A stretch of DNA of 64,000 bases from a virus. The stretch lies in the IMG/VR virus record IMGVR_UViG_3300020027_000006, positions 11,245 through 75,244 of that record; one strand, written 5' to 3'. Positions 1-48,573 of this stretch are shown here, piece by piece. The position numbers and the translations under genes were made by a program. The notes under the pieces were generated by a model. The model ran no database searches and was not told the origin of the DNA. It was given only the letters and a program-made list of their open reading frames with translations. The stretch's first letter is position 1, and each line of letters begins with the position of its first letter.

Positions 1-265
1 CTCCTGTTACAATACCTTTTCTGCCGTAATATATACTTTCTTTTGAAACTCCTGAAATTTGAATATGAGTTCCAACAGGTGTAAATTTATACTCTAGACT
101 AATATTTTCAGATTCACCAAAGACGGTTCTAGGTTTAAAATTCCATTCAAATGCCGTTACGTGAACCATATCGTCTTCAATAAATTTAACATGACCACGT
201 ATCCACTTTATTTCACCTTCATGAAAAGTTTTTACTGATACTTCGTCTCCCACACCGTATTCCAT
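1..265 (-). CDS. Partial SH3/KOW-like small protein (MEYGVGDEVSVK...), runs off window
   Basis: Hand translation: ATG at 265 just after the TAA of 267..650; N-terminus matches the YxxGDxV pattern of neighbours. Confidence 0.7.
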   Translation of the reverse strand, partial: MEYGVGDEVSVKTFHEGEIKWIRGHVKFIEDDMVHVTAFEWNFKPRTVFGESENISLEYKFTPVGTHIQISGVSKESIYYGRKGIVTG

Positions 266-266
266 A

Positions 267-650
267 TTAACCTGCTATCCATATATAAACTGCAGAACTA
301 TCAAATACTTCAAACTCTGAGTCTATAACTGAAAACTGAGACCTGTCTAATAAAGTATAAATTGAATCTGGGTCAAGCCTTACTGTATAATCAGAGTAAT
401 CATAGCTTATACTCATTATCGTTCCTTCTCTGTTTTTCCACTTTTCACTGGTTACTTTAATTCGTTTACCAACACTTGAAGCTTTATGCGTTGTAATAAT
501 TTCATGTGATTTACGATACTCGAATTTTCTGAAATCGGGAAAACTCCCATGACTTATAATAATTCTATCTTCTTCAGAGTATATATCAATAATATATCCA
601 TAAATATCAGTATCTTTAATTTTTACTCTGTCTCCTATTTCAAACTCCAT
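267..650 (-). CDS. Tandem KOW/SH3-like protein with C-terminal VxxWI tag
   Basis: FEIGDRVKI and VGKRIKV beta-barrel starts; ends SAVYIWIAG. Confidence 0.7.
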   Translation of the reverse strand: MEFEIGDRVKIKDTDIYGYIIDIYSEEDRIIISHGSFPDFRKFEYRKSHEIITTHKASSVGKRIKVTSEKWKNREGTIMSISYDYSDYTVRLDPDSIYTLLDRSQFSVIDSEFEVFDSSAVYIWIAG

Positions 651-652
651 AA

Positions 653-1150
653 CTATCCTTTTAACCAGTCATGTACAGGAACTTCTTTTTTTATTTCAAT
701 CCACTCTGTTGCTTTATTTTCTGCATCCCATAAAGCCCATGACTTGAATTTTTTTAGCAGCATATTTTCAAAATAAATTTCAGCCCCGAATCTTACTCTA
801 AGACCATCGTACCTAGTAAACTCTTCATCATCAATTAAATAACCAGAACGAATAATATATCTATCACATTCTTTATCTGAAGAACTCCAAAAAATATTAC
901 GTACACCGTTTACTCTGTCATTTATCCAATTCTCACAATCTTCTAACGCATCTATCGGCTCAATCACGTTTTTTGAAGTATGCCCACCTAAAAAACTATG
1001 TCCAAAGGTATTTGACAGTGAGATATAGCCGTTAATCTTGTTTTTACACAATAAAAGTTCAGGTAAAGTTTTTATTGTTATCAAATATTCTTTGTAGATA
1101 ATTTTTTCTATGACTCTCGGCAAAACTAACATAGTCAACTCCCCAACCAA
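653..1150 (-). CDS. Hypothetical protein with C-terminal VxxWL tag
   Basis: ORF track; ends VPVHDWLKG. Confidence 0.65.
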   Translation of the reverse strand: MVGELTMLVLPRVIEKIIYKEYLITIKTLPELLLCKNKINGYISLSNTFGHSFLGGHTSKNVIEPIDALEDCENWINDRVNGVRNIFWSSSDKECDRYIIRSGYLIDDEEFTRYDGLRVRFGAEIYFENMLLKKFKSWALWDAENKATEWIEIKKEVPVHDWLKG

Positions 1151-1362
1151 TCTGATAGAGAAGTATCAGGAGGATGTATTTTCTCTAAAATAAAATAAGG
1201 TAAAGTTATAATAATTTCAGTGCTTGATTCGTATCTAGTTTTAATTTTAATGTGAAGGTTAGATTTTATTCCAACTACAGTACCTCTCTGTAATTCAGGA
1301 ACAAGCCAACCAGACTCCTCCCAAACTACTTCATCTCCTATATCAAATTCAAGTTTTATCAT
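1135..1362 (-). CDS. KOW/SH3-like small protein with LxxWL tag
   Basis: FDIGDEVVW; ends TSLSDWLGS. Confidence 0.7.
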   Translation of the reverse strand: MIKLEFDIGDEVVWEESGWLVPELQRGTVVGIKSNLHIKIKTRYESSTEIIITLPYFILEKIHPPDTSLSDWLGS

Positions 1363-1363
1363 G

Positions 1364-1615
1364 TTAATTTTCTAACCAGTCTGATAGAGAATTGTTAATG
1401 AATTCAGCTTTTTTAACCATACTTTTTAAAGTTAATTTTTTTAACCAGCCGTTAGGAAGAGTTTTAACCTCACCAACCTCTGCACCCTGTTCGGGCTCAA
1501 GTCTAACGTAGGAACAATACGTTCCTACAGTAAGTATGGTTCCTTTTCTCATTTCGACTAAGTTATTTACACAGATTTTATAAGTCACCTCATCGCCTTT
1601 TTCAAATTTTAACAT
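1364..1615 (-). CDS. KOW/SH3-like small protein with LxxWL tag, probably leaderless
   Basis: FEKGDEVTY; ends NSLSDWLEN; TTGACA-17-TAAAAT then 7 nt to ATG. Confidence 0.75.
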   Translation of the reverse strand: MLKFEKGDEVTYKICVNNLVEMRKGTILTVGTYCSYVRLEPEQGAEVGEVKTLPNGWLKKLTLKSMVKKAEFINNSLSDWLEN

Positions 1616-1659
1616 AAAATATATTTTATCATATGTATTCTATTTTGTCAATACAAAAA

Positions 1660-2103
1660 TTAAATCCTCAACCACTGTTGCACCGCATTAGAGTCCTTAT
1701 CAGGATTATCACTCGCTCTTTTAACTAATTTAAAATCCTCGAAAAATAAGTCGCCAGTCCTAACACGGTCGGAAGAAGCATCGAAGTAAGTAAATCCAGC
1801 TTTCATCCTTCCTTCAACCAAATAAACAGAAGTCACAATTGTTCTTGAGCCGTTAAGAAGTTCGATTATATCTCCTTTCTTTATAAACTCTAAAGGCTCC
1901 GATTCTAAAATAACAAGTATTCCTTCAGAATTTATATAAGTGCCATTATTAAGTTGAAAGACTTGTAATTTTTCAAAAGCCGTAAATTGAATTAAAATGA
2001 AGTCTTTAACTACATCTGATACTACTCCTTTTAAATACTCCCCCTCTGGAGAACAATAATGTATTGATTGACCAACTATAAACATATATCTAATTCTAAC
2101 CAA
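1660..2103 (-). CDS. Tandem SH3-like protein with VxxWL tag
   Basis: FIVGQSI and IKKGDII; ends NAVQQWLRI. Confidence 0.7.
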   Translation of the reverse strand: MVRIRYMFIVGQSIHYCSPEGEYLKGVVSDVVKDFILIQFTAFEKLQVFQLNNGTYINSEGILVILESEPLEFIKKGDIIELLNGSRTIVTSVYLVEGRMKAGFTYFDASSDRVRTGDLFFEDFKLVKRASDNPDKDSNAVQQWLRI

Positions 2104-2552
2104 CGATGAAGTCCGTCTTTTTCAGGTTGTATTACTATTAAATCAGCGTATCGAAATTCCTCGTTCCAGCCAACACCTTTTTCTGTATATGATACCCTCG
2201 CCCAACAATCGTTAGCAGGTAATTCTATCCAAGTCTTGAATACCTCTCCTATCTCACCGTTAGGAAGGAGCACTTTATCACATATTTTTATTCTGTCTAA
2301 TGAATCTGTATTTAAGAAGTTTAAAGTTTCGTTATAACAATTTTGGTATAATTCAGATTCCGGAGAATAATTAAAAGTTTCTACCATTTCTGGGAAATTC
2401 CATTTAGCCAAAATAAGAGGTGGAGAATCAAATATAGCATATACTGTTCCTTTTTTTATTATTTGTTTTCCATCTCTTCCTCTTCCGTCAGAAAGGCTCC
2501 AAACATTCATTCCTTTGACAATTAAATCTTTCATACCTTTGCGGACAACCAA
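2076..2552 (-). CDS. Tandem SH3-like protein with LxxWL tag
   Basis: IKICDKVLLPNGEIGEV; ends GLHRWLELDICL. Confidence 0.65.
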   Translation of the reverse strand: MVVRKGMKDLIVKGMNVWSLSDGRGRDGKQIIKKGTVYAIFDSPPLILAKWNFPEMVETFNYSPESELYQNCYNETLNFLNTDSLDRIKICDKVLLPNGEIGEVFKTWIELPANDCWARVSYTEKGVGWNEEFRYADLIVIQPEKDGLHRWLELDICL

Positions 2553-2803
2553 TTTGTTACACTCGTATTTTCAATAATCAGCTCAGTTGTAAAGCTTAAA
2601 TTATCCTCATGCATAAAAAAATCATTATAATCATTTACCTTATGTACAGCCTGTCCATTATCATCTACAGAACAAACACAGTAAATATATTCCGAACCCT
2701 CAAAGTTTTTTCTTACGGATACAATAACTCCTTTTACAAGAGGAAGTTCTGAACCGTACTTAACCGTTACACAGTCACCTGTTTTAAATTTTGGATAACT
2801 CAT
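2531..2803 (-). CDS. KOW/SH3-like protein with VxxWL tag
   Basis: PKFKTGDCVTV; ends TSVTNWLSAKV. Confidence 0.75.
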   Translation of the reverse strand: MSYPKFKTGDCVTVKYGSELPLVKGVIVSVRKNFEGSEYIYCVCSVDDNGQAVHKVNDYNDFFMHEDNLSFTTELIIENTSVTNWLSAKV

Positions 2804-3224
2804 TAGACATCCAATTAAGTACAGGATAAAGTGTTGTATCCTGCACCTCTAATTTATCCTCCCAAACCCAAACTCTTTCACCAGTTATAAGACGTACTAA
2901 ATATATATTTATAACTTTATCTTGACGCCAATCAAATTCAGACTTACATCTAACTATATGTCCTAATGTATTATTTGTTAGTATTATTACTTTTGTATTA
3001 TCTTCAAATTTTATCGAGTTTGCCCGTCTGTCACTGGCTTTTTCAATCAAAGTAAGCTGATTGACAGGCTTTAAGAATCTTTTTATGCGTCCTGCATCAT
3101 CAACACCTCTTATATAATACGCTTCGGGGTGCAATTTAGAAGGACAAAATATATACAGATTTCTATAAAAATACAGATAGTCACAGCGTACTTTGTCATT
3201 TTTCTGAAATTTATACTTACTCAT
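2784..3224 (-). CDS. Tandem SH3-like protein with VxxWM tag
   Basis: Start MSKYKFQKNDKV by ATGA overlap; ends YPVLNWMSNELSKI. Confidence 0.7.
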   Translation of the reverse strand: MSKYKFQKNDKVRCDYLYFYRNLYIFCPSKLHPEAYYIRGVDDAGRIKRFLKPVNQLTLIEKASDRRANSIKFEDNTKVIILTNNTLGHIVRCKSEFDWRQDKVINIYLVRLITGERVWVWEDKLEVQDTTLYPVLNWMSNELSKI

Positions 3225-3379
3225 ATATTTATAATCCATTCACAAACTGGTGAAATAACTGAAAAAATATCTTCTTCTAAGTCTGACTCAAAACACCAAA
3301 TTGTTTCTTCATTATCGAGTTTTAAAAGATATTCATGTATAACTTCGCCTTTAATTACATATTTTTGAAATTTATACAT
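3221..3379 (-). CDS. 52-aa protein missed by the ORF track, with PVCEWI tag
   Basis: Hand translation MYKFQKYVIKGEVIHEYLLKLDNEETIWCFESDLEEDIFSVISPVCEWIINI. Confidence 0.6.
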   Translation of the reverse strand: MYKFQKYVIKGEVIHEYLLKLDNEETIWCFESDLEEDIFSVISPVCEWIINI

Positions 3380-3382
3380 ATA

Positions 3383-3691
3383 TCATTCGTTCGCGGACAG
3401 CCAATTTTGTACAAAATTAACTTCTTCGACTATCCCATCATCCTGTATAAAACTTTTTGGGTGTATAGAAGTTAAAGTCCACCAAAACCTGTGAACAATT
3501 TTGAAAATATGTTTATAATTATCTTCTTCCAGTCTTAAATCATAATAACTTTCGTCGAAAGACAGAGAAACCGATTCTGTTTGTCCATAGTTTTCTACGA
3601 TACATCTTATTCCAATTTTGTGCGGAGAGCTTTTATACAGTACAAGTTCTCCTATCTCAAATTTAGGTTTCTTCATAAATTTTCTATCCAC
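3383..3691 (-). CDS. KOW/SH3-like protein with VxxWL tag
   Basis: KPKFEIGELV; ends NFVQNWLSANE. Confidence 0.75.
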   Translation of the reverse strand: MDRKFMKKPKFEIGELVLYKSSPHKIGIRCIVENYGQTESVSLSFDESYYDLRLEEDNYKHIFKIVHRFWWTLTSIHPKSFIQDDGIVEEVNFVQNWLSANE

Positions 3692-3927
3692 CTGTAAACA
3701 GACTCATCAAAAACATCTTCATTAGCTGTATAAGGTAGTACATTTGTCAGTCTATCCTCTAAATACACACCGCTCACATTACAACCTTCTAAAAATGAAT
3801 GTGTTGTATAGACAGGAAATTTATCCAAACCTATTCGAGATATTTTAACTATTATTCCAATAAACGGCTCTTTTTTAGGCTCTGTAATCATTACAGATTG
3901 TCCTATACTATATTTAGGTTTGTTCAT
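3673..3927 (-). CDS. KOW/SH3-like protein with VxxWI tag
   Basis: KPKYSIGQSV; ends ESVYRWIENL. Confidence 0.75.
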   Translation of the reverse strand: MNKPKYSIGQSVMITEPKKEPFIGIIVKISRIGLDKFPVYTTHSFLEGCNVSGVYLEDRLTNVLPYTANEDVFDESVYRWIENL

Positions 3928-3962
3928 GTTCCATTCATTTAGATACAGAAGATTCTGAATTA

Positions 3963-4214
3963 TCAGAATTTTTCATTGGTCAGCCAATTCTGTAAGCATT
4001 CGTAAACAGGTATAATAGACTCTAAATATTGATTTTTAAAATACAGTGACTCTTCAAACTCAGTTATAACTGTATATTGATATTTTTCTACTTGTCCTAT
4101 CAAATCGTGGACGATTGTAATCTCTGTTATTCTACCTATCTTATTGTTATGAGTGACACTAGGGGACACGATACGGACTATATCTCCTATTATGTACTCT
4201 GGTTTTCCTAACAT
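3963..4214 (-). CDS. KOW/SH3-like protein with LxxWL tag
   Basis: KPEYIIGDIVRI; ends ECLQNWLTNEKF. Confidence 0.75.
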   Translation of the reverse strand: MLGKPEYIIGDIVRIVSPSVTHNNKIGRITEITIVHDLIGQVEKYQYTVITEFEESLYFKNQYLESIIPVYECLQNWLTNEKF

Positions 4215-4358
4215 ATATCTAATTAAATTTACCCATTCGCGGACAGAGAATAAGTTTACGAATCAGTTCCTGAATAAGTAGTCATTAAACTTTCAGGAAG
4301 TATAACACCTAATTTATTACCTAGACGGATAATCTCTCTATTGTCTAAATCACGTTGC

Positions 4359-4865
4359 TCAGTTTTCACTTACTTTAGACGCTTCAGATGCCTTTACCAG
4401 CTCTACCAATTTCTTTTTATTAAACAATATACCAGATTCAAACATAGCCAAAACTGTGAGTCCATTATACATGGAGCCGCTCCATAGACCAGTATCTCCG
4501 TTTTTAATATTAATGAAGTTGCTAACAGATGAATCGTATTTTACAGTAAGTTTTGTGTCCTCTCTCGTGTTCAATAGATTTACTTTATTTGTTAAACTTT
4601 CAAAAATAACAGTCTCTGCGGACTTTACCGGCTCCTCATCCCAATGTGTCCAAGCCAATATATAAACCCAATCAATGCTTTCACCGACAGGAGTGTTACC
4701 AACTACAATAAACCTGAGTAAGGAACTGCCTCCCTCGCTGATTGAAATATATGGAAAATCTTTGTCGCTGTGTTCAGTAATAGTAAGTTTATTTGATTCA
4801 CATATATCATTTATTTCAGTTAGAATATATGTACGTTTTGTAAATAAATTTTTAAGTTCAGTCAT
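4359..4865 (-). CDS. Hypothetical protein
   Basis: 168-aa ORF with AGGAG RBS. Confidence 0.7.
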   Translation of the reverse strand: MTELKNLFTKRTYILTEINDICESNKLTITEHSDKDFPYISISEGGSSLLRFIVVGNTPVGESIDWVYILAWTHWDEEPVKSAETVIFESLTNKVNLLNTREDTKLTVKYDSSVSNFINIKNGDTGLWSGSMYNGLTVLAMFESGILFNKKKLVELVKASEASKVSEN

Positions 4866-4886
4866 AAATTTCTCCTAATCTTCAAT

Positions 4887-4994
4887 CTAATTAACTAACC
4901 AATCGACTAAATACGCTTTCACATTTTTCTGTTCATTATCTATAAGTTCGTTGGCAATAAGACAAGCAGATTCTATGTTAGAATAATATTTCAT
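4887..4994 (-). CDS. 35-aa peptide with YLVDWL tag
   Basis: Hand translation MKYYSNIESACLIANELIDNEQKNVKAYLVDWLVN; GGAG upstream. Confidence 0.5.
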   Translation of the reverse strand: MKYYSNIESACLIANELIDNEQKNVKAYLVDWLVN

Positions 4995-5027
4995 TTTTTT
5001 GAATTCTCCAGTATTTCACATAGTTTT

Positions 5028-5213
5028 TATTCATTTGCGGACAGCCAATTCTGTACATCAGAATAACCTTCTTCGATTTCAATAGAAGGTTCATATGCTT
5101 CAATCATAGCTTTTATAAGAAGTTCAGCTCCAGACTCTGCACTTTGTACAGTAGTAAAACCCTTTATGGGTATAGTCAGAGACTAAATGCATTACATCTA
5201 TTGAACTTTCCAT
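5028..5213 (-). pseudogene. Frameshifted tag-bearing gene remnant ending DVQNWLSANE
   Basis: ATG at about 5213 is in a different frame from ...IEIEEGYSDVQNWLSANE*. Confidence 0.45.
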
Positions 5214-5216
5214 TTT

Positions 5217-5477
5217 TTATCCTTCTGCGGACATCCAATTGAAGACCGCTAAAGTTATTTGACTCTTCTTTTCATCCAGTTCTTTTGCTAAAATACCAGA
5301 TATATAATACTCAGCAAACATTTTAGCTCTATAAACAGTAGTAAAATTTTGAGCCAGATAATAACTTCCGTCATCTTTGTAAAGTTTAATTTTATATGGT
5401 GCTTCTTTATCCCAATCCCATATATCTTCGGGTGATTCAATTACATAACGTACACCTTTATAATAATAATTAGACAT
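5217..5477 (-). CDS. Hypothetical protein with VxxWM tag
   Basis: Ends LAVFNWMSAEG; sigma70 promoter upstream (TGTCAA at about 5521). Confidence 0.7.
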   Translation of the reverse strand: MSNYYYKGVRYVIESPEDIWDWDKEAPYKIKLYKDDGSYYLAQNFTTVYRAKMFAEYYISGILAKELDEKKSQITLAVFNWMSAEG

Positions 5478-5924
5478 AAACTTTATTCCTTGAATTTATT
5501 GTACCATATACAATCTCTTATGTCAATAAAATAATACTTTGGTGTTAATTTTATACACCGCTCGCGGACAAAAAATTAGGCGAACTGTCCAATCTTTTAT
5601 ATAAATTTATATAATATATAATAACAACCAATATTAGACAGTAAAAAGAGCATATATTCTGAATACAAAAGAGCAATTAAAAAGAGAAAAATATATACAA
5701 AACAGCTTTATTTATATAAGAGATAAACAATATTACACATTAAGTAAATATAAGAAAACCAGACACAAAACTAATTTTTTAATACCCACCTGCGGACGAA
5801 GAAAAAGCTAATAAATACTAAGAGCAAATAAAAAGATAACTAACAAAGAGTTAACTAATACAGAAGAAGAGAACTAAAATAAAAGCCTTATAGAGTAATA
5901 GAGAATAGAGTAGCCAATAGAGTT

Positions 5925-6149
<225 letters not shown>

Positions 6150-6586
6150 GGCCCAATTTGCAGTTTTCCCTAATTTGCACTCAACTGGAAGTTCCCTCTA
6201 CACGTTCCCAATGCTTTTTATAAGTTCTAGTATATACAGCAGTAGCCAATCGTATCCAATCGTTATTTTCCATTTTATAGGGTATAAAAGTATGTTCAAT
6301 TGTCTCAGCTTATGTTCAATAGTAGGTATTAATCTGACAAAATATAAAGGGCTCCGCGAAGCAGGGAAAAAGTTGTATTGGCTAAGGGGTCAAAGTATAC
6401 TTTTTGCTAGTAAAAACGCATATATAGTTTTCTGTAAAGTGGCTTTATTTTGCCTGTAAATACGCAAAGACGGGTTTTTACTGTGTAGCATATACTAATA
6501 CTAGTGTCAACACGGAAAAAGGGCAGGTCGGGGCAGCAAATGGCTTCTTTTACTGTCCGCAACCCTATAAAAGTATCATTTTTGTG

Positions 6587-6950
6587 TTGACAAAGCATAT
6601 AAAACTATGATATAATGTATGTGGAGGGGTGCGGGAAAAATAAAAAAATTTAGTTAAATTCCTGCGTCCGATAATGAGTACTGACGCAGGGGAAAAGTTA
6701 CTCTGAAAATTCGTAACCTTTTTGTTTTCAACAGTTTAATTTTTTGACGCATTTTATATAAGATTATATAAAAACAGGGATATTTCACTTGCATTTTGCA
6801 AGTAACTTGAGGATGTAATGCACGTTATGCCAGCAAACAGCTAAATAGATAAAAAGATATGAGAAATATAAAAATAAAACTTTACACACTGCGGAAGTAC
6901 GTAAAGAGAAGAGAAAAAAGGCAACCAGAACGGCTACCTTTTTATTTTTA
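6587..6950 (+). ncRNA. Putative GGGTGCGGG small RNA unit 1
   Basis: TTGACA 6587, TGnTATAAT 6611, GGAGGGGTGCGGG 6623, hairpin plus T tract at about 6913-6950, no credible ORF. Confidence 0.5.
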
Positions 6951-6965
6951 TTTGGTGGGTACTAA

Positions 6966-7889
6966 CTATGCGGTCTTCGTCAAAGCAGCAAGTGCCTTAG
7001 CATTAGATGCCTTAACCTTGTCAGCCTTAGCATCCTCAGCTTCTTGTGCCTTAGCCAAAGCCTTTGCCTTTTGCTCATTTGCACGAGTGACTGACTTAGC
7101 CTGTGCTTCCTTAGCTTTAGCATCAGCCTTAGCAACTGCATCCAAAGCCTTCTGCTTTGCCTTTTCCGCTTTTTCTACTTCCTTAAGGTCAGCCTGTCGC
7201 GTTGCTTCAATTGCACGAAGCTTTGCCTTTTCAGCCTTAGCGGTTTCACGTTCTGCTTTTCTACGTGCGGTTTCCTTACCTAACTCAACCGAACGGAGTT
7301 CCTTAGCCTTTACTCGCTCGGCTTTACGAGCCGCTTTTGCCTCGTCCGCAATACGCTGATTTTCAGCATTTACTGCTTCTCGGGCTGACTTTGCTTCTGC
7401 CTTTTTCGCCTCGTAAGCTTCGGTCGCATTGACACTCGGATGAAATACGTCGTTGCTGTCGGTGAATTCTACCGTCATGATAGCATCACCTTCTTTCCAC
7501 GACTTAGCATCAGGAACCATAGCAGGGATACCTGCATCCTGATATTGACGAGCCTTTGCTTGTTCCTTACGCATAGCCGCAATCTCAGGACGACTTGTCC
7601 ATTCTGTTGCCTTTGCGGTCTGGTCTTTCTTACAGATATTGCGGAACTTGCCGTTTGCAAGCTTCGAGAAATTCGATACACCTTCAACTGTCTTTTCCGG
7701 TGTTCCGCAAACCGAGCATTTAACTTCTGCCGTCTTTACTACTTCTGCCTTAACTACTGCCTTAACTACTTCTTTCGCCGGAGCCGTTGCTGTAGTTTTG
7801 GTCTTCGTTGCCGACTTTGCTGACTTTGCCGACTTCGTTGCCTTAGTAGTTACGTTACCTTTACCGTTTGTCTTTTTATTCGTTGCCAT
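6966..7889 (-). CDS. Lys/Ala-rich histone H1-like protein with CxxC and coiled coil
   Basis: KATKSAKSAKSATKTK N-tail, CSVCG...ICKKD, KA-rich C-terminus; two identical tandem promoters (about 7938, 8069). Confidence 0.8.
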   Translation of the reverse strand: MATNKKTNGKGNVTTKATKSAKSAKSATKTKTTATAPAKEVVKAVVKAEVVKTAEVKCSVCGTPEKTVEGVSNFSKLANGKFRNICKKDQTAKATEWTSRPEIAAMRKEQAKARQYQDAGIPAMVPDAKSWKEGDAIMTVEFTDSNDVFHPSVNATEAYEAKKAEAKSAREAVNAENQRIADEAKAARKAERVKAKELRSVELGKETARRKAERETAKAEKAKLRAIEATRQADLKEVEKAEKAKQKALDAVAKADAKAKEAQAKSVTRANEQKAKALAKAQEAEDAKADKVKASNAKALAALTKTA

Positions 7890-8140
7890 AATTTTAACTT
7901 TGTCCTTTTTACTGTGTCCCTTTGTTTGACTTAATCAGTGTACCAAATGAAAAGCATTTTGTCAACATCTTTTTTAACTTTATTAAAATAAAAAAGTTAA
8001 TTATTTTTGTAAACTTTCCTCTTCACTTTGTCCATTCTTTTTAAGTTACCTTCCTTCGACAAAAATAAGTGTACCAAATGAAAAGCATTTTGTCAACAAA
8101 AATATTAGCAGAAAACCCTGAAAATAAAAAAAGTTTTATG

Positions 8141-8325
8141 TTGACAAAAGATTACTTATATGATATACTATTTGTGGAAGGGTGCGGGACTTCCAGTTGA
8201 GTGATAGATGAAACAGTTGTTGCAGAGACGAAACACAAACACAACAAAGATAAGATAATGAGAAGCTATAAAAGGTTGACATACTGAGGAGCAAAACTCT
8301 GATAAGAAGTCTTATCAGAGTTTAA
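8141..8325 (+). ncRNA. Putative GGGTGCGGG small RNA unit 2
   Basis: TTGACA-17-TATACT, GGAAGGGTGCGGG at 8176, hairpin aaactctgataag...cttatcagagttt. Confidence 0.5.
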
Positions 8326-8378
8326 GTGGTTTCATGGGTTTCATGGGTTTCATGAATTTAATAATTATTAATAATTAG

Positions 8379-10743
8379 TTATACTACGTAGTCATGCCAG
8401 TACTTTAGGTCGTGCTCTTCTAATACTCCTAAAGGAAAGTAACCGTCCGTGAACTCTTCTTCTTTGTATAACATTGAAAAGTCCTCTTTGTAGTAACTCA
8501 TTGCAAATTTCTGTGCTTGGTCTCTATCACGAGCATTTTTTATAAGAGCATAACCATCACGTCGCTTCCTGTCTTTCTGTCCGAAAGTTACAAAATATTT
8601 TGGCTTGGTTTTTTGCATACTAAACTTGTGAATTTTTTTGTCGTACTTGCGGACTCTCCGCAATAGCCTCAGAAATTAATGTAAGCCTTCCCATAAACTT
8701 TGTCTTAGCCATTTGATACCCTTGCTCAAAATGTCCGAGTGCTACTGTTAGACTTCCTATTGTTCCTCGTGCTATAACATTCATTTCGCCAGAGGACGTT
8801 TCATAAACTGTGTTATCAAACCTATCCGCACCAAAAGCTGTCTTAAGGTCTAGCCCAGTACGTGAATTTACATTACAAACAAATACATCCAACATCTTAG
8901 ATGTATGAATATCGGGAAGATTAATATTATCCATAATCACTCTCTCCTGTTCACTGATTATTCACTGATTGTTCGCTTATTATTTCAGTAACTATTGTTA
9001 GTCTATTTGTTAAGCTATTATTAGTCTATTATTAAGCTGATTTGTCATATTCTAAAGTACCTAAACTTTGTGCAAATTCCAGTTCTGTATTCTTATACTT
9101 TATAGCATAACTCGCTGTATGTTTATTAGCAAACCAAAGCTCGAACTCTCCCGTATTTAAGTTGAAAAGAATGTGCTCTTTATTATTACTCATAGAAGTA
9201 ACATACTTATAACCAGCTTTCCTCATCGTTTCCCTGTTATCCATAAATTTTATAGTACCACAAAGAAAGATTTTTGTCAACAATTAAACTCTAACTACTC
9301 TTAGTTTATTATTAAATATTACTTCAGGAAGAGAATCAAATTCTTGAACTGTTAACTTTGATTCTCCTCTAAAGTCGTAAGTATCGCCCATTAATATGCA
9401 AGCTTCGTCCTCATTAGACGCTTTAACGTAATACTCTTCACTGCCCATATCGTTTCCGTCAGCTATTATGTATATTTTCATACTCTCTATATTTTTCATT
9501 TTCTTTGTCATTTTCTTTGTAACTTCATTACGCAGCTTGTTGATTAGCAATCTTAGCTAATTCTTTCTTAACACCGACCGCAACTATACCTTTCCAGTTT
9601 TTTGAATGGATAAGAAAACTAAGCACCGTATTACGTGCGTTCTCTTCCGTAATCTGGTCAAGGTTAAACATTTCAGTAACTCGTTCCTTTGCTTCGCCAC
9701 TAAGATTTGCATAATCTCGTTTGATTGTCCCTGCGAATCTATAAAGTGGCTTATGCTCTGTATTGTTTTCCATAATATGTAGTGTACCAAAGATTTGCTG
9801 CTTTGTCAACAAGAAAACCACACCCTAAATTTTTATTCCTAATGACTTTAGATTCTTATTAAGAATAGCCTCACCTGCTTTTAGATTAGCCTTTACATCG
9901 TTTACTAGGCTTTGTACGGCGTCTAAACCTCCTTTTAAGGTTACTATATAAGAAAGCGGTCGTTTAACCTTAAAACTACGTACATTATAGGTTGCAGTAT
10001 TTTTTTCGATAGTGCCATAACAAACACCCGTATTGCTATCACTTGCAATCTTCTTTTCGAATTTTTCCGTTTCTTTCTTGTTATAGTAAGCATAAAGCAG
10101 CTCATCCACTTTTTCGATTAGCGTATCCATTTCGATGAACCCTATAAAATTTGTCGAAGCTACGTAAATATAAGTCTCTCCGCCACGACCTTCATTTTTT
10201 GCTTCGCCAACACGAACACCATTTTCATAAACAGATGCGGAAAAACAAATTGTTTCCTCACTCATGAATTCCGAAATTTTAATATTTTTTAATGTTATTG
10301 ACATAAGAGTAATGTAGCATATTATTGCTATTTTGTCAAGATAAAAAATTCTTTTTATTTTCTCTATTCTCTATTCTGCTCAGTAATATGTTTGAACTTA
10401 TCTTCTTATTTACTTTATTGGTTAGTTAGATAGGCAATCACTTCTTATTTAATTTTTTTTATTTTTTTGTGATTTGCGGATGAGAAACTACTATATCTTT
10501 TCTTTTTCCTCTTTCCATGTCTTAGTATAATACCAGAAATGAAGGTTGTCAAGTGCGGACATTACTTTTCCTACTAATACTAATTAAATCAATAATATCA
10601 AGCAGTTCATTTATATCAGCATCTTGTACATCGACACGCTCCTCTAGCTTTGTTATCATATTAAACAGGCCAAAGAGCAGTATGAAAATTAGTACAAGTA
10701 CAACTATCAAAAATATACATACACCCATTAGTAAACTTTCCAT
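8379..10743 (-). other. Run of small hypothetical early genes (8379, 8620, 9032, 9284, 9528, 9825, 10549 ORFs)
   Basis: Co-oriented small ORFs, several with their own TTGACA/-10 promoter; 9825..10304 has SEETxCFxAxVYxNGxxVGxAxNxGRGG, a motif I recognise from phage hypotheticals. Confidence 0.7.
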
Positions 10744-10800
10744 AGTAAAATTCTATCATAAAATAAATATAATGTCAACATAAAAAATAGAAAATAAGTG

Positions 10801-11070
10801 TTGACAAAAGATTATTTATATGATATACTATTTGTGGAGGGGTGCGGGTGGTACTTTTTTCCCCGGATTCCGGGGAAAAAGTAAATAAATTTATATGTGT
10901 GTATACGATTCCAGTTGAGACACACTTGACTAATAATGAGAGAGCCCCTCTCTGAGTGGGACTACTCTCTGGTGGGTGAGAGGAGACCTGCTCGATTGAT
11001 GGCAGATAAAGAGAATAGAATAGAAGAGACAAAAAAGCCTGCAAACTTTGCAGGCTCGTATTTTTTTTTG
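10801..11070 (+). ncRNA. Putative GGGTGCGGG small RNA unit 3
   Basis: TTGACA-17-TATACT, GGAGGGGTGCGGG at 10836, terminator agcctgcaaactttgcaggct. Confidence 0.5.
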
Positions 11071-11609
11071 TTTTGTATTTATTCTGTGTTCTTATTTTGC
11101 CAAACAAAATAATCTTTTCCGTATATAGCCTTCATAGCTAACTCGAACATAAAATGTATGTCGTCATTATCATCGTGATAAGTACCATTTGATACTGCCT
11201 TAACTCGTTTTTCTGCTAACCGAATTAAAGGATTCCAGTCTATTTTTGGTTGGACTTTAGGAGATTCACACTTGGGTTCAAATATAAATTCCCCGTCAAT
11301 AAAATCTATTAATTGTATTTGACGGAAAGTTGTTATTGATTCTTTTGACATATTAAATCTCTAAAAAATTTGTTAGCTTGTCGCGGAGTTCATCTAATTC
11401 AGACCCGTCAGTTTTGAATCTTGACTCTATATTAAGAGTATCTGCTATATCTTGCTCCCCTAATACGGCCTGTGCTATCACCATAGTCATAGCAAGTTCT
11501 CTACGTGAAAACCCTTTAATACCTACTCCTTCCTCAGTTTTGCTTACCGTTATTTTTCTTAGCGTCTCTTTGTCCATATTTTTAATAGTAACACAATTAA
11601 AAATATTTG

Positions 11610-23257: not shown

Positions 23258-23848
23258 TTAAGCCTCTCTCCAAGTCTTATTAGATTTAATTGAGTAAACT
23301 ATATCTAATGTAAGTTCGGAACAAGATATTTTTTCTAATATCTGCGGAGCAGTAAATTTATTTTTTAATAAGTGTTTAACTTGATATGCTATTTCTTTAT
23401 TGATTCTTTGATTAGGCTCATGTCCTTTTGGAAAAGGGTTGAAAGCTTTCATTCCTTTATAAAACCTACGCCCTTTACACTTATTGCCAGTTGCTTTGCG
23501 TTCTCGGTCTTTAGCCCTCATATCATCAGAATTGATTTTATGGTCACCTTCAAAAAGATGTTTAGGATTAACACAATTTCTAATATCACAAGTATGGCAT
23601 AAAAATAGTTTTTTGTCAATAAATAAATTATTAGCAATTATAAAAGAAACATGATGTACTCTTTTAGTTTTATCATTTATTGAAACTTGTCCGTATTCTT
23701 TTTCATTAGGGTTTACTTTGTTTTTCTTTGTCGCCCCAGTCCACAACCAACAGCCTTTAATGTTAGCATCTTTAATTACTTTATCAAAAAAATTATTTAA
23801 TTGTTTTTCCGTAATAAACTTCATTTGCGATTTTGAATGTTTCAACAT
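23258..23848 (-). CDS. HNH homing endonuclease
   Basis: GCWLWTG...YGQV...RVHHVSF...CHTCDIRNCVNPKHLFEGDHKIN. Confidence 0.9.
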   Translation of the reverse strand: MLKHSKSQMKFITEKQLNNFFDKVIKDANIKGCWLWTGATKKNKVNPNEKEYGQVSINDKTKRVHHVSFIIANNLFIDKKLFLCHTCDIRNCVNPKHLFEGDHKINSDDMRAKDRERKATGNKCKGRRFYKGMKAFNPFPKGHEPNQRINKEIAYQVKHLLKNKFTAPQILEKISCSELTLDIVYSIKSNKTWREA

Positions 23849-24665
23849 GTAAACTTACTGTATCTTTTTCATTATAACCTCCTGCCATAACAAATACAAT
23901 AGGGATATTCATTTGTTTCGTAAATTCAAATACAGAACGGTCACGTTTTTGTAGTTCTAATTTAGTTAAAATTCCACTTCCTAAGCTATCATGAATGTAT
24001 GCATCCATACCCGCTTGATAAATAATTAAATCAGGTTTAACATCAAGAATAGTTACAAAAGATTCAGCCAACGCTGCCTCGTAATCTATCCAACTTCTTA
24101 CTTTTCTACTCCAACTATGTATTGTTTCCTCGTCTGAAGAAAGTGCCAAACCAAAAATACTGAAATTATAAAGGTTATCAAGTTGTCTTGTAAAATCTCT
24201 TGTTCCATCACCAAAGTGAATGTCCACATCGAGTACAAAAACACGTTTATCAGGCAGTTCTTGTGCGACTAAAGCTAATCCGTTAAATGTGCAATAAGCC
24301 GACCCCCTGTCATAGGATGAATGATGAAAACCCGCAGCTATACAAGAACTAATTCCAGTGCTTAAAGCCTGTTCAGCAGCCGGAACCATAGATTCATTAA
24401 TGGCTAGAACCCCGTCTCTAATTTCTTTTGTCCAGTTCCATCCATTTGAACTTGCTAAATGTCCTTCTCCTTTAACAAAAGCTTCTACATATTTCGGACT
24501 ATGCAATTTGGTTAATTTATCAATTATATGTTCATCTGATTTTGATTCTATGATTTCAGATAGACCGATTTCTTGAACTTCTTTCGAGATTAAAGAAAGT
24601 TTTCGCATCGAAAGTGTGGGAGTATCTGCAAAAAATTTAGATTTATAGTATGTAGGTATCTTCAT
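23793..24665 (-). CDS. Histone deacetylase family (Zn-dependent) deacylase
   Basis: GFHHS, AYCTFN, LDVDIHFGDGT, YQAGMD, DSLG, GGY motifs. Confidence 0.92.
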   Translation of the reverse strand: MKIPTYYKSKFFADTPTLSMRKLSLISKEVQEIGLSEIIESKSDEHIIDKLTKLHSPKYVEAFVKGEGHLASSNGWNWTKEIRDGVLAINESMVPAAEQALSTGISSCIAAGFHHSSYDRGSAYCTFNGLALVAQELPDKRVFVLDVDIHFGDGTRDFTRQLDNLYNFSIFGLALSSDEETIHSWSRKVRSWIDYEAALAESFVTILDVKPDLIIYQAGMDAYIHDSLGSGILTKLELQKRDRSVFEFTKQMNIPIVFVMAGGYNEKDTVSLHVETFKIANEVYYGKTIK

Positions 24666-24870: not shown

Positions 24871-25160
24871 AATAGTTACTAATTTCAATGAAAAACAATG
24901 AAATTAACTTTAAACTTTTAACAGTTTTGGGCTAACTAAAAAGCCCTCTACTTCGTTCGGAAAAACCTCTCCAAGTTTCTTTTTTAGAATATTCAATGCA
25001 GCGTTATAGTCAGCATTAACTGAATGAATGTAATACAAGCCATTGCTTTGTTGTGCTTACTTGCTAATCTGCAGAATTAGTTTTCAGTCAATTGGTTTAA
25101 GTTAACGCATAATGGTTTCCTCCCGACTTTAAGTCTTTACCAATCTCGAATACTTACCTT
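24871..25160 (-). mobile_element. tnpB: Internally deleted IS200/IS605/IS607-type element: TnpB C-terminus plus right end (omega-RNA region)
   Basis: Encodes HSVNADYNAALNILKKKLGEVFPNEVEGFLVSPKLLKV* (RuvC-III ADxNAAxNI) followed by a hairpin end. Confidence 0.75.
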
Positions 25161-31105: not shown

Positions 31106-32223
31106 TTATTCTTTTAACCAATTGTGTAATGGTGTTATTAGTTTATTTAGTCTTTTTTCTTCTTTTATTACTTTTTGTTTATTTTCTCTCTCCACACGTA
31201 GTCTAATTTTTTGTCTTATTGTAAGAGCTGATTTATGTAACTTATCTAATGCACTCATATCACCATCTTGAAGAGTCTTTAAGTGCTCTTTTGAAAGAGG
31301 TCTAAGTGGTAAAGATTTAATTAATTTCTCTCGTTTCTTTTTATTTTTTATTTTTACCTCTTCTGGTATTGTGTTTGGCATTTGTTTTGGTTCCTTTTAT
31401 TTTGTCCGCGAGGCACTTAAATTTTTAACCATTTGAAAACTGGGCTTTCTTTACCTGATTCAGTTTTGATTTGATTATTTGTTTGATTGTGGTTTGAAGG
31501 TCTGTTATCTTCTTTTTGATTATTTCTAATTCTGGTTGGATTTTAGAAAAAGCATAATAATCATCTGGATGCATAACATAATCGTAAGCTAACCTGTCTC
31601 TGTCTTTAATAAGAATATTTAGTTTCTTTTCTAGAGTCTTTATTTTATAGTCATCCATTTTTGTATAGGTAAGCTGCATACAGTATTTAATTTATCTTGT
31701 ATCCTATCTTTTTCTTTTTGTATTTTTTTGTCCAACTCTATTGTTTTTAAGCTTATTCTTCTTACCTCATCATTGAATACTTCTAAGCCTATATGAGTTG
31801 TATTCATTTGTCTCCAATACTCATTCTTTAGTGCGTCGTATTCGTTCCAATTTAACTCCCTCTCTATGATTAAATCCTTTAATTTTTTAGATGTGGCATT
31901 CATTATTTCTTCTTTAACCATTTTTGTACACTGTTTGCTTCTTTTTGAGCTTCTTTTTGAGCTTCTTTTTGAGCTTCTTTTTCAAGCTTTTTAGTTAACT
32001 TTATCTGTGCTTTCTTAGTTATAAGTTTTGCTAAATATAGTTCAATATAATCCCTTGAATAAACCAGTTTTTCTATTTGTTTTTGTATAGACAGGGCATT
32101 TTTTACATCGTAGAGATTAAGGCTTACTCTGTAATTATTGTTTAGTGAGAATATTTTTGATATTATTGAGTTTAACTCGTCTGATACTTCTTCAATTTGT
32201 TTTTCTATATCTAGGTCACTCAT
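31106..32223 (-). other. Four coiled-coil small proteins carrying the same C-terminal tag
   Basis: 31106 TPLHNWLKE; 31640 LPIQKWMTIK; 31903 NSVQKWLKKK; 31425 has SPVFKWLKI in a shifted frame. Confidence 0.7.
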
Positions 32224-32428
32224 ATAATTTTACTCGTATAATTTTCGTATAATTTTATAGTGTCTGCGGAACACTATAATAGAACTCTTGTATTTATAAT
32301 CTTAACATAAAATCCGCAGATAGTCAACAAATATTTTATTTTTCTAATAAAATACATTTCTAATGCTTGACATATGCTGTAACTTTATATAAACTTTCCA
32401 GTTATGGAGATAAAATTATTAGTAAAAC

Positions 32429-33211
32429 ATGTCTAGTACAAAAACAATGAAACGCTCAAAAGAGCAACGTGAGTCTGATATGAATATACTGTCTAAAATG
32501 TATATTCGAAACAAATCTCAGATGGAGATAGGCCGTACACTTGGAATATCTCAAGGTCAGGTCTCCAATGACCTCAAAAAACTACTCAAACGTTGGGAAG
32601 ATACTCGCCTTAACGATATAGACCAATATAAAGCAGAGCAATTACAACGAATCAATCACATAGAAGGTGAAATGTGGACAGCTTGGGAGCTTAGTAAGAC
32701 CAAAGGTAAGATAACTATATCTAAATCAAAATCAGGAGAAATGGTCAAAATGCTTGACCCGTCGACCGGAAGAGAATTTAAGATGGACGATGACCGTTAC
32801 TGGAAAGCAGGTGAAATCGAAGAGCTTCCAACTGGCGGGGGTGATATGCAATACATGAACGGTATTATGTGGTGTGTACAAGAACGTTCTAAAATTATGG
32901 GACTTAATGCTCCTAAGAAAATTGCTGCTACTGACCCAACCGGTACAATAGAAGCAGGTCAATCTGCAAAAGAGATACTTGGGGATATAATAGGCGGAAT
33001 TTTAAAACGAGCTGAAAAATCTGATAAAGAATTAATAGGAAGTAAACTTATGGAAATCGGAGATAACAATGAGATTGATGTTAGCTCTGGCTCAGTTCTG
33101 GCTCAAAAAATAAGGGATGAAAAAATACGAAGACTTCCGCCTGCAAAAAACGCAGGTACATCTAGTACCGAAGAAAATAATTACATTGATGCGGAGATAA
33201 TAGATGAGTAA
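32429..33211 (+). CDS. terS: Terminase small subunit (HTH)
   Basis: SQMEIGRTLGISQGQVSNDL HTH, RSKIMGLNAP; overlaps terL start. Confidence 0.75.
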   Translation: MSSTKTMKRSKEQRESDMNILSKMYIRNKSQMEIGRTLGISQGQVSNDLKKLLKRWEDTRLNDIDQYKAEQLQRINHIEGEMWTAWELSKTKGKITISKSKSGEMVKMLDPSTGREFKMDDDRYWKAGEIEELPTGGGDMQYMNGIMWCVQERSKIMGLNAPKKIAATDPTGTIEAGQSAKEILGDIIGGILKRAEKSDKELIGSKLMEIGDNNEIDVSSGSVLAQKIRDEKIRRLPPAKNAGTSSTEENNYIDAEIIDE

Positions 33212-46634: not shown

Positions 46635-47056
46635 ATGAAGAAAATAATCAAATCTGTGATTAGACGGTTTTTAGTTCCAGATAGAGTTCCACATATGTTA
46701 GTATCATTGTTAATGGTTCTTATGTCTGTAGGTATTGGGATAGTATTTAACTCTATACTATTAGGAATATTTTTTTGGCCTTTATTCGGTTTAGGTATAA
46801 CGCTGCATTGAATATTCTAAAAAAGAAACTTGGAGAGGTTTTTCCGAACGAAGTAGAGGGCTTTTTAGTTAGCCCAAAACTGTTAAAAGTTTAAAGTTAA
46901 TTTCATTGTTTTTCATTGAAATTAGTAACTATTGTTGCATATTTTATTATAGGAGTTTATACTGCATTAGCTGTAAGTAAAGTGACAGGATTTATCTGTG
47001 CAGTAATTATAAACAAGCTTTTAGCAATTAGAGCATGGGCTTATGCTCAAGATTAA
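46635..47056 (+). pseudogene. Membrane protein gene interrupted by a 128-bp TnpB right-end insertion
   Basis: Removing 46802-46929 restores a 97-aa hydrophobic ORF (...LFGLGI-TIVAYFIIG...WAYAQD*). Confidence 0.7.
46796..46933 (+). mobile_element. 138-bp exact inverted copy of the TnpB 3' end/right end at 24871-25008
   Basis: Base-by-base match to the reverse complement of 24871-25008. Confidence 0.85.
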
Positions 47057-47793: not shown

Positions 47794-48573
47794 ATGAAAA
47801 AACAAAAAGGATTTTGTATATGGATAACAGGTCTTTCTGGCTCTGGAAAAACAACTTTAGCTGATGAGTTAAGGCTCCAACTAGGAAGGCCTGTCAGCAT
47901 TTTAGATGGAGATGAGGTACGAAAAACTTTATGTAAAGATTTAGGATTCTCTAAAGATGATAGAGATGAGAACGTATCTAGAATTGCTTTTGTGGCAAGT
48001 GAGTTAGTTAAACAGGGGATTATAGTTATTGTTTCCTGTATAAGTCCTTATAAAGATGCAAGATTAGATGCTAGAAATCTAATAGGCGATTTTATAGAGG
48101 TCTTTCTTGATACCCCTAAAGAAGTGCTTTCTACCAGAAGCAAATACTTAGGAGAGTATGAAATAGGAACTCCAGAATTAGTTATTAACTCAGGAACTCC
48201 TCAAGACAATGCACTTACCCTTATAAATTATTTAGTAGATGCGGAGTATCTAGGGACATCTTTTATGTTAGGCAGATTTCAACTGTGGCATGCTGGTCAT
48301 ACAGCCTTATTTAAAGAGGCGTTGAAAGAAGGAAGAGTGTGCATCGGAGTAAGAAACCTTAAAAAAAGTAAAAGTAATCCTTTTGATTTTAGAGAAGTTG
48401 AAGTTAGCATTCAAAACGCTTTAGTTGCATATGAGGGTAGATATAACATCATCCAGATGCCTAATATAACTAGTATAGTGTATGGAAGAGATGTGGGGTA
48501 CGACGTAAAAAGAATAGATTTAACTCCTGATTTAGAGAGTATAAGCGGAACCAAGATAAGGAACAAGATATGA
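47794..48573 (+). CDS. cysC: Adenylyl-sulfate kinase fused to HxGH nucleotidyltransferase domain
   Basis: WITGLSGSGKTT, LDGDEVR...DLGFSKDDRDENV; C-terminal GRFQLWHAGH...YGRDVGY...ISGTKIR. Confidence 0.85.
   Translation: MKKQKGFCIWITGLSGSGKTTLADELRLQLGRPVSILDGDEVRKTLCKDLGFSKDDRDENVSRIAFVASELVKQGIIVIVSCISPYKDARLDARNLIGDFIEVFLDTPKEVLSTRSKYLGEYEIGTPELVINSGTPQDNALTLINYLVDAEYLGTSFMLGRFQLWHAGHTALFKEALKEGRVCIGVRNLKKSKSNPFDFREVEVSIQNALVAYEGRYNIIQMPNITSIVYGRDVGYDVKRIDLTPDLESISGTKIRNKI

Follow-up and report, generated by a model that had tools for sequence, protein, structure and literature searches.

A tryptophan-centred C-terminal tag selected as a peptide on 22 phage proteins: a putative docking signal of small early-type proteins

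Introduction

Shared linear peptides that dock or address proteins are already known as a kind, and some of them, such as the cargo-loading peptides of encapsulins and the capsid-targeting sequence of phage T4, are portable and give diverse proteins one destination; the T4 sequence is N-terminal, is carried by proteins made for the prohead, and is cleaved off by the prohead protease. The present work concerns a short, previously undescribed motif, a tryptophan-centred tag at the C-terminal end of 22 proteins encoded by a 75,244-bp IMG/VR viral contig (IMGVR_UViG_3300020027_000006), of which bases 11245-75244, a stretch of 64,000 nucleotides, form the window analysed here. The contig covers about 56% of the genome according to the CheckV estimate, or less if a 250,550-bp contig that carries proteins identical to its own represents the whole phage. 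Coordinates refer to the window unless the contig is named.

Several described systems place a functional signal at or near a protein end. The acidic C-terminal tails of single-stranded-DNA-binding proteins (SSB), represented by the bacterial tip D-D-D-I-P-F and by gp2.5 of phage T7, dock on partner proteins, degrons of the ssrA/ClpX type require non-polar last three residues and a free carboxylate (LAA-like ends), and arrest peptides of the TnaC/SecM type keep a fixed spacing from a conserved Trp to the arrest or stop site. In clamp-binding systems, one C-terminal motif serves many clients, as exemplified by QL(S/D)LF for the beta-clamp and LDFL in T4 gp33 and gp55 (PMC9690074), while archaeal PIP motifs at the very C-terminus form a one-turn helix that places three hydrophobic residues in a pocket (PMC6881253). 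Furthermore, C-terminal degrons of Lon and ClpXP work when transplanted, the Lon H-degron reading x-[LI]-[LIV]-H as the last residues and HspQ carrying a C-terminal Lon degron (PMC11986505).

The tag and its enrichment

Fourteen of the 22 tagged genes on the contig end in the tag at minus-strand open reading frame (ORF) ends between 267 and 5477, in an array that extends 2.8 kb beyond the left edge of the window with five more tagged genes (contig 8488-11509); another three lie at 31106-32223, about 26 kb from the array. The tag reads [A/S/P]-[V/L/I]-[Q/H/x]-[N/D/x]-W-[L/M/I] and is followed by 2-8 variable residues. With the tryptophan as position 0, all 22 copies have V, L or I at -3 (once F, in AFQDWL, one of the five tags left of the window), W at 0 and L, M or I at +1, whereas the stretch after W-[LMI] is constant in neither length nor sequence, and the proteins end in G, S, N, I, L, V, K, E, F, M, C or R. 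An initial reading made from the letters of the stretch (the sequence-only reading) had quoted fourteen tags, all of which are present at minus-strand ORF ends; its distance of 2-7 residues before the stop holds when counted from the end of the motif, the tryptophan itself standing 2-8 residues before the stop.

The same reading had raised two objections against itself, namely that C-termini might carry the motif no more often than shuffled controls and that a DNA repeat might explain the conservation. With regard to the first, the strict pattern [VLI]xxW[LIM] occurs in the last 14 residues of 21 of 161 ORFs (all those of at least 35 amino acids, aa), against 0.74 expected from the internal rate and a mean of 1.06 in 2000 shuffles, the maximum of which was 6. 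The pattern has no match in the N-termini of these ORFs and none among the plus-strand late genes (29 late-strand proteins), and in about 530 kb of unrelated loci it is found in about 1% of ORFs. The tag is a real feature, statistically overwhelming and far beyond chance.

The sequence context of the tag is also distinctive. The 12 residues preceding it have a net charge of -0.14 per residue, compared with about 0 in the protein bodies, and the most frequent residues further upstream are S (4), V (3), K (3) and D (3) at -6 and E (5) and V (3) at -7. Untagged genes of the same operons, such as those for a tryptophanyl-tRNA synthetase (TrpRS) and a 168-aa ORF, have ordinary ends. Left of the array, two minus-strand genes end in near-tags that miss one hydrophobic position (contig 1785-2120, …MLVLDWSK; contig 7747-8478, …EFNLSWLIHDDDT) and may be degenerate or variant tags.

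The tagged genes, the remnants and the untagged gene standing among them within the window are as follows.

Contig 8488-8787, 8940-9413, 9410-9652, 10622-11056 and 11060-11509: tagged genes left of the window
2-265, minus strand: N-terminal part of the 149-aa tagged gene at contig 11060-11509, whose tag AVQIWMSEKM lies just outside the window
267-650, minus strand: tagged gene, 127 aa, two SH3-like modules, ends SSAVYIWIAG
653-1129, minus strand: tagged gene, 158 aa, without SH3-like match, no homologue found, ends VPVHDWLKG
1135-1362, minus strand: tagged gene, 75 aa, SH3-like, ends TSLSDWLGS
1364-1615, minus strand: tagged gene, 83 aa, SH3-like, ends NSLSDWLEN
1660-2088, minus strand: tagged gene, 142 aa from ATG, ends NAVQQWLRI
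2076-2534, minus strand: tagged gene, 152 aa, ends DGLHRWLELDICL
2531-2803, minus strand: tagged gene, 90 aa, the protein modelled by AlphaFold, ends TSVTNWLSAKV
2784-3224, minus strand: tagged gene, 146 aa, ends YPVLNWMSNELSKI
3221-3379, minus strand: tagged gene, 52 aa, short SH3-like, ends SPVCEWIINI
3383-3676, minus strand: tagged gene, 97 aa, SH3-like, ends NFVQNWLSANE
3673-3927, minus strand: tagged gene, 84 aa, SH3-like, ends ESVYRWIENL
3963-4214, minus strand: tagged gene, 83 aa, SH3-like, ends ECLQNWLTNEKF
4215-4262, minus strand: tag remnant SVREWV (FVNLFSVREWVNLIRY), open, in frame and directly upstream of the start of gene 3963-4214
4359-4865, minus strand: untagged gene within the array, 168 aa, no homologue found
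4887-4994, minus strand: tagged mini-gene, 35 aa, ends AYLVDWLVN
5027-5182, minus strand: remnant of 51 open codons with no start at its head (an internal ATG gives 26 aa), ends SDVQNWLSANE
5217-5477, minus strand: tagged gene, 86 aa, without SH3-like match, ends LAVFNWMSAEG
31106-31381, minus strand: tagged basic helical protein, 91 aa, ends TPLHNWLKE
31640-31921, minus strand: tagged coiled-coil-like protein, 93 aa, ends LPIQKWMTIK
31903-32223, minus strand: tagged coiled-coil-like protein, 106 aa, first gene of a leftward unit, ends NSVQKWLKKK

The untagged genes within the array are the 168-aa ORF, a 40-aa ORF and the TrpRS gene. Among the decayed copies named previously, DVQNWLSANE (5027-5182) and SVREWV (4215-4262) are present, whereas the third, SSVSK-TGA-ME, spans about 12 codons and is too short to be judged.

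Conservation at the peptide level

When the 22 tags are aligned on TGG, high information is found at codon positions 1 and 2 (-11, -8, -6, 0 to 2 and +4; xCx, xTx, CAx, xAx, TGG, xTx), while the third positions -10, -7, -4 and -1 carry 0.16-0.26 bits, near the small-sample floor, and +5 carries 0.51 bits. Because conservation resides at the first two codon positions and third positions are at background, selection acts on the amino acids of the tag. The tag is selected as a peptide, and far more strongly than the protein bodies, in agreement with what codon variation had led the sequence-only reading to propose.

This profile also bears on the second objection, that the likeness of the tags stems from a repeated boundary sequence, for instance a recombination site or a product of gene conversion, and not from the peptide. 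A subset ending in N-W-L/M-S-A (2536-2554, 3388-3406, 5222-5240 and the remnant at 5032-5050) shares the word 'TGTCCGC' and is 70-89% identical over 19-33 nt, and the DNA of the remnant at 5027-5182 is 79-94% like that of other tags. Four tags and two or three remnants share this word, one remnant copy standing in another frame, as a DNA-level repeat would allow. Nevertheless, DNA-similar tags are a minority, V, L and I are written with many codons, third positions stay at background across all 22 tags, and no Rfam family matches the region (window 1-7000 was searched). The DNA-repeat explanation is largely refuted by the codon-position profile, and we regard it as the least probable of all those considered here.

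Within the subset, the shared DNA suggests either a younger tag subfamily or exchanged gene 3' ends. An SH3-like match is lacking in one member (5217-5477) and present in two others, which provides weak evidence that gene ends move between bodies. In addition, the G+C-rich word 'CTGTCCGCGAA' occurs six times in this DNA, the G+C content of the tagged-array region being 32%; four copies read W-L/M-S-A after the tag Trp, the remnant at 4234-4252 has a copy that lies in another frame and precedes the Trp (S-V-R-E-W), and in the copy at 5559-5577 Phe replaces Trp (NFLSASGV).

Bodies of the tagged proteins

The bodies show almost no pairwise similarity by BLAST, but they are not all unrelated. Eight single-domain members can be aligned and share the start M-x-K-P-K-F-x-I-G-D-x-V, the SH3-like module, searched for with a hidden Markov model (HMM), occurs 11 times on the contig, in 10 proteins that all carry the tag, and about five further tagged proteins show the same start by eye. 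At least ten tagged proteins, and probably about 15, are members of one strongly diverged, tandemly duplicated family of SH3/Tudor-like barrels. The other seven lack the module (contig 8488-8787; window 653-1129, 4887-4994, 5217-5477, 31106-31381, 31640-31921 and 31903-32223), and the three encoded at 31106-32223 are lysine-rich and coiled-coil-like. The tag is present on at least two clearly different kinds of body; the sequence-only reading, which had described the bodies as unrelated or highly diverged, was right in this respect and underestimated kinship in another, as at least 10 of the 22 proteins match one HMM.

SH3-like small barrels are defined by five strands and about 55-60 residues. 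The only usable structural model, an AlphaFold model of the 90-aa member (2531-2803) built on a 22-row alignment, predicts a four-strand barrel over residues 1-58 (predicted local distance difference test, pLDDT, 82-87; strands 11-15, 22-32, 39-46 and 52-55), a disordered linker over residues 60-74 (pLDDT below 50) and a short helix at 83-87 that covers N-W-L-S-A. Its best VIA-align matches are chromo, SH3 and Tudor domains with Z 4.9-5.4, below the decisive level of the tool (the whole range for such barrels being 4-5.4), Foldseek matches have E-values of 0.2 or worse, and the nearest named Atlas clusters, which are language-model look-alikes, are DsrB, DUF3104 and DfrB, all small barrels. 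For ten tagged proteins, Pfam gave sub-threshold SH3 matches only, and neither PHROGs nor Pfam returned anything above threshold. Altogether, the predicted body of this member is consistent with an SH3-like small beta-barrel.

A family origin leads to the main rival of the docking interpretation developed below, namely that the tag is the conserved last element of a tandem SH3-like family and folds back on its own barrel, providing autoinhibition or stabilization, or binds a neighbouring barrel, giving chains or mixed oligomers; tagged proteins without an SH3-like body would then be derived members or ligands recruited to the barrels. Such a role is favoured by the exclusive co-occurrence of module and tag (10 of 10 SH3-like HMM matches on the contig are tagged, and no untagged protein matches), by gene starts conserved as a 39-nt repeat family (D1), which fits tandem duplication, and by the fact that SH3, Tudor and chromo barrels, the folds matched here, are typical peptide binders. 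However, barrels that have diverged strongly beside a nearly invariant tag are the reverse of the pattern expected from receptors and ligands that co-evolve, and the distance between the module and the Trp ranges from 6 to 44 residues. Moreover, the AlphaFold model, at low confidence, leaves the tag undocked on the barrel behind its disordered linker, and of the seven tagged proteins without the module, three are coiled coils encoded in another operon. We therefore consider a family-internal role unlikely, though it is the alternative to be taken most seriously.

Gene layout, promoters and synthetase neighbours

Virion genes occupy the plus strand of the right half of the window, among them those for a probably intein-rich large terminase, the portal and an 1853-aa protein; in the left half, small genes form a long block on the minus strand. 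No tRNA gene was found in the window. The tagged genes lie on the strand opposite to the head and tail genes, in tightly coupled operons with many ATGA overlaps and with sigma-70-type promoters with an extended -10 element upstream. Those at 31106-32223 have a promoter-like site of their own and stand at the head of a leftward transcription unit. The relevant sites are the following.

1623-1651, minus strand: sigma-70-type promoter TTGACA-17-TAAAAT with TG, within the array
5498-5526, minus strand: sigma-70-type promoter TTGACA-17-TACAAT with TG, heading the part of the array inside the window
32299-32327, minus strand: promoter-like site TTGACT-17-TAAGAT with TG, ahead of the three tagged coiled-coil genes

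This layout weighs on the proposal, made in the sequence-only reading by analogy with T4, that the tag loads proteins into the virion by binding the inner capsid or scaffold, so that they are packaged and injected. Shell-targeting peptides are known from T4 and encapsulins, and the tagged proteins are small and diverse, like many injected effectors. In opposition to this, the tagged genes form early-type operons on the other strand than the head and tail genes, neither the 29 late-strand proteins nor any protein of the late block is tagged, and the T4 signal sits at the other protein end and is removed by cleavage. This comparison speaks against the capsid-loading claim, and a virion-loading role appears very improbable.

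A full-length trpS gene is located within the array, between tagged genes (contig 9652-10590, minus strand, 654-1592 bases left of the window). Its product scores 241 bits with the TIGR00233 equivalog model (cut-off 176.75; match over residues 9-310 of 312) and matches PF00579 with E = 7e-56, and its nearest bacterial relatives, at 44-45% identity, are those of Tissierellales-type Firmicutes and cyanobacteria; together with the promoter type, these relatives weakly suggest a low-GC Gram-positive host. The presence of TrpRS in an array of Trp-tagged genes may be a coincidence or may reflect a link to Trp supply. A shortened lysyl-tRNA-synthetase-like gene (contig 5799-6956, minus strand, 385 aa), 1.5 kb further left and well below the equivalog cut-off, could encode a second phage aminoacyl-tRNA synthetase or an EpmA/GenX-like lysine ligase.

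The synthetase is one reason to weigh a signal at the level of translation. In that case V-x-x-W-L as a nascent peptide, or its UGG codon, would make ribosomes pause shortly before each cistron ends and would tie operon expression to charged tRNA-Trp supplied through the array-encoded TrpRS. Tight gene coupling with its many ATGA overlaps would suit such a device, and the arrest peptides TnaC and SecM are likewise selected as peptides. Yet there is no fixed geometry, since the tryptophan stands 2-8 codons from the stop and between -1 and 143 nt from the next start, or has no next start at all; untagged genes of the same operons are coupled alike; Trp use outside the tag is ordinary in the tagged proteins (1.40% vs 1.35%); and finding one TrpRS among two nearby aminoacyl-tRNA synthetase genes amounts to a coincidence of about 1 in 10. 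A translational role is accordingly given as little credence as virion loading.

Two further translational candidates were rejected. Recoding of TGA as Trp, in connection with the TrpRS, is incompatible in this region with late genes that are open under the standard code and with tags that lie 2-8 residues from TGA, TAA and TAG alike, the excess of TGA in the array being due to the ATGA overlaps. A Shine-Dalgarno or coupling element was discarded because the distance between TGG and the next ATG, in most cases 14-17 nt, can be anything from -1 to 143 nt.

Other features of the window were recorded alongside. On the plus strand between 6575 and 26432 (for example at 6587-6635), seven near-identical strong promoters are directed against the early genes; they have the form TTGACA...TATGATATACT, and each is followed by GGAGGGGTGCGGG. 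The large terminase (33204-37940, plus strand, 1578 aa) shows terminase matches in separate blocks together with an endonuclease-like insert, a layout that fits several inteins. The early block encodes a histone-deacetylase-family protein (23793-24665, minus strand; PF00850, E = 2e-32) and the virion block a protein with an APS-kinase domain (47794-48573, plus strand; PF01583, E = 4e-38), and a 32-residue ORF fragment occurs with 100% identity on opposite strands about 22 kb apart (24910-25038, minus; 46775-46894, plus) as an inverted DNA repeat.

Search for relatives

The phage stands alone in the collections searched. Comparison by blastn and megablast with 50,697 phage records returned only its own sequences, IMG/VR, scanned for patterns taken from two tagged proteins, from the portal and from TrpRS, yielded only its own proteins, and scans of metagenomes and genomes with TrpRS returned only bacterial TrpRS genes of at most 45% identity. 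A profile of eight members with SH3-like module and tag, run against 5.8 and 1.84 billion proteins, gave full-length matches to the window's own proteins only, the remaining matches being untagged barrel repeats of a generic, tandem 'KFKxGDxV' type. The 168-aa untagged ORF and the tagged ORF of 158 aa, each used as a single query, found no relatives. One protein has a copy of 99% identity, the only variant encountered. The G-rich RNA-start motif, used as a probe in IMG/VR, retrieved seven contigs (40-54% GC) that carry neither the tag nor a family match and are not relatives. No description of the tag was found in the domain databases or literature searched, in keeping with the earlier remark that the system was not recognised as a described one.

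Interpretation as a probable docking peptide

The interpretation that we favour, and hold to be somewhat better than evenly supported, is that one partner reads the tag, which would act as a short linear peptide for docking, tethered flexibly to its protein. It is the simplest reading because an invariant Trp and two invariant hydrophobic residues with helix spacing are combined with a capping residue, and because the tether is acidic and disordered, the spacing and the extreme C-terminus are variable, and the bodies differ. Mechanistically, the tag would form one or two turns of an amphipathic helix that presents V/L/I (-3), W (0) and L/M/I (+1); a small residue (A/S/P at -4) would cap it, and its acidic tether would hold it at the protein end. 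A single partner surface, encoded by the phage or the host, would read it and would gather the early, fast-evolving small proteins at the same place or pass them to the same machine. Binding in trans and the single reader are what we infer from these features. The portable docking peptide of the sequence-only reading is thereby retained in substance, with peptide-level selection, different bodies and the position behind a disordered linker in the model on its side, while much of the sharing that it had attributed to portability is common descent.

Several points count against docking. No tag partner was found, and in the model the tag helix itself has low confidence (pLDDT about 50). Sharing of the tag is partly inheritance, at least 10-15 of the 22 tagged proteins being one paralogous family. 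Furthermore, PF00712, PF02916 and PF00705 find no sliding-clamp gene in the 75-kb contig, itself a partial genome, and no relatives of the phage turned up in any collection searched.

Candidate readers of the docking peptide can nevertheless be ranked. The first place may go to a ring or hub in replication or transcription, since [N/D]-W-L close to a C-terminus is similar to LDFL and h-x-x-a-a in clamp-binding tails; the second would go to an AAA+ protease or adaptor, and the third to another phage protein encoded outside the contig. Within the array, the untagged 168-aa ORF is a candidate partner by position only.

If the second candidate applied, the tag would be a timed-removal label, that is, a degron through which a host or phage AAA+ protease or adaptor clears the early set together; this is a special case of docking that predicts instability instead of recruitment. 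It would agree with the early-type character of the tagged genes behind sigma-70-like promoters, with the established transplantability of C-terminal degrons of Lon and ClpXP (PMC11986505), and with the presence of HspQ (5ycq), a small SH3-like barrel with a Lon degron, among the weak fold matches. On the other hand, no described degron fits: none of the tagged proteins ends in His as x-[LI]-[LIV]-H demands, none has an LAA-type end, and the variability of the last 2-8 residues implies that the free C-terminus is not part of the signal. A degron is consequently judged improbable, less so than virion loading or ribosome pausing and more so than a family-internal role.

Two other identities were tried for the tag and dropped. 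A mimic of the FtsZ C-terminal peptide would need Pro at -2 and a basic residue at +2, neither of which is in the tag, and a membrane-targeting helix is at odds with a context that is acidic and polar, not basic.

Beyond a single reader, it is conceivable, though we are doubtful, that large phages run private 'address label' systems, in which a lineage-own Trp tag and its reader gather early effectors on one hub. Applied to the present phage, this equally tentative idea would make about 22 clients carrying [ASP]-[VLI]-x-[ND]-W-[LMI] the members of one such system, which, if true, would be an undescribed layer of organization in phage host takeover; should similar private tags hold in other large phages, they would constitute a general way of organizing that takeover.

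The practical implications extend to several levels. Early genes of large phages mostly have no known relatives, and a shared tag offers an experimental starting point: one identified partner could stand for 22 proteins and point to the host or phage machine that is targeted. Were the reader a hub of general importance, for instance a clamp, RNA polymerase or a protease, it would have in the tag a new ligand of very compact form. In annotation, motifs that recur at protein ends within one genome escape domain databases.

Comparison with known systems

Compared with the capsid-targeting sequence of T4, the tag occupies the opposite protein end, belongs to proteins of early operons and is missing from the virion gene block. 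With degrons such as those of Lon and the ssrA type, it shares the concept of a transplantable C-terminal peptide with one reading machine, and HspQ, a small beta-barrel followed by a tail, is built like the tagged barrels; the tag differs in its sequence pattern and in the variability of its extreme C-terminus. SSB tails provide a further parallel, being acidic flexible tethers that end in hydrophobic or aromatic residues, but there one carrier addresses many readers and the terminal Phe carboxylate matters, whereas the tag has many carriers and its last 2-8 residues vary.

Clamp-binding tails (T4 gp33, gp55 and gp43, the beta-clamp motif, and PIP boxes of the form Q-x-x-h-x-x-a-a) differ from the tag in several respects. 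Relative to the PIP and beta-clamp motifs, the tag has no Gln preference at -6 or -7 and its second 'aromatic' residue is aliphatic; relative to LDFL, its upstream hydrophobic residue stands one position further away; and its clients are about 22 tiny early proteins without assigned function, not replication or repair enzymes. With Gln absent, the spacing off by one and no clamp gene found in the part of the genome that the contig covers, the clamp-binding motif was not adopted as the identity of the tag. The likenesses concern the overall design: in both, a short C-terminal motif is carried by many otherwise unrelated clients, the core is hydrophobic-x-x-aromatic-hydrophobic in a one-turn helix (a prediction for the tag) on a flexible tail, and the [N/D]-W-L of the tag resembles the D-F-L of T4 gp33 and gp55.

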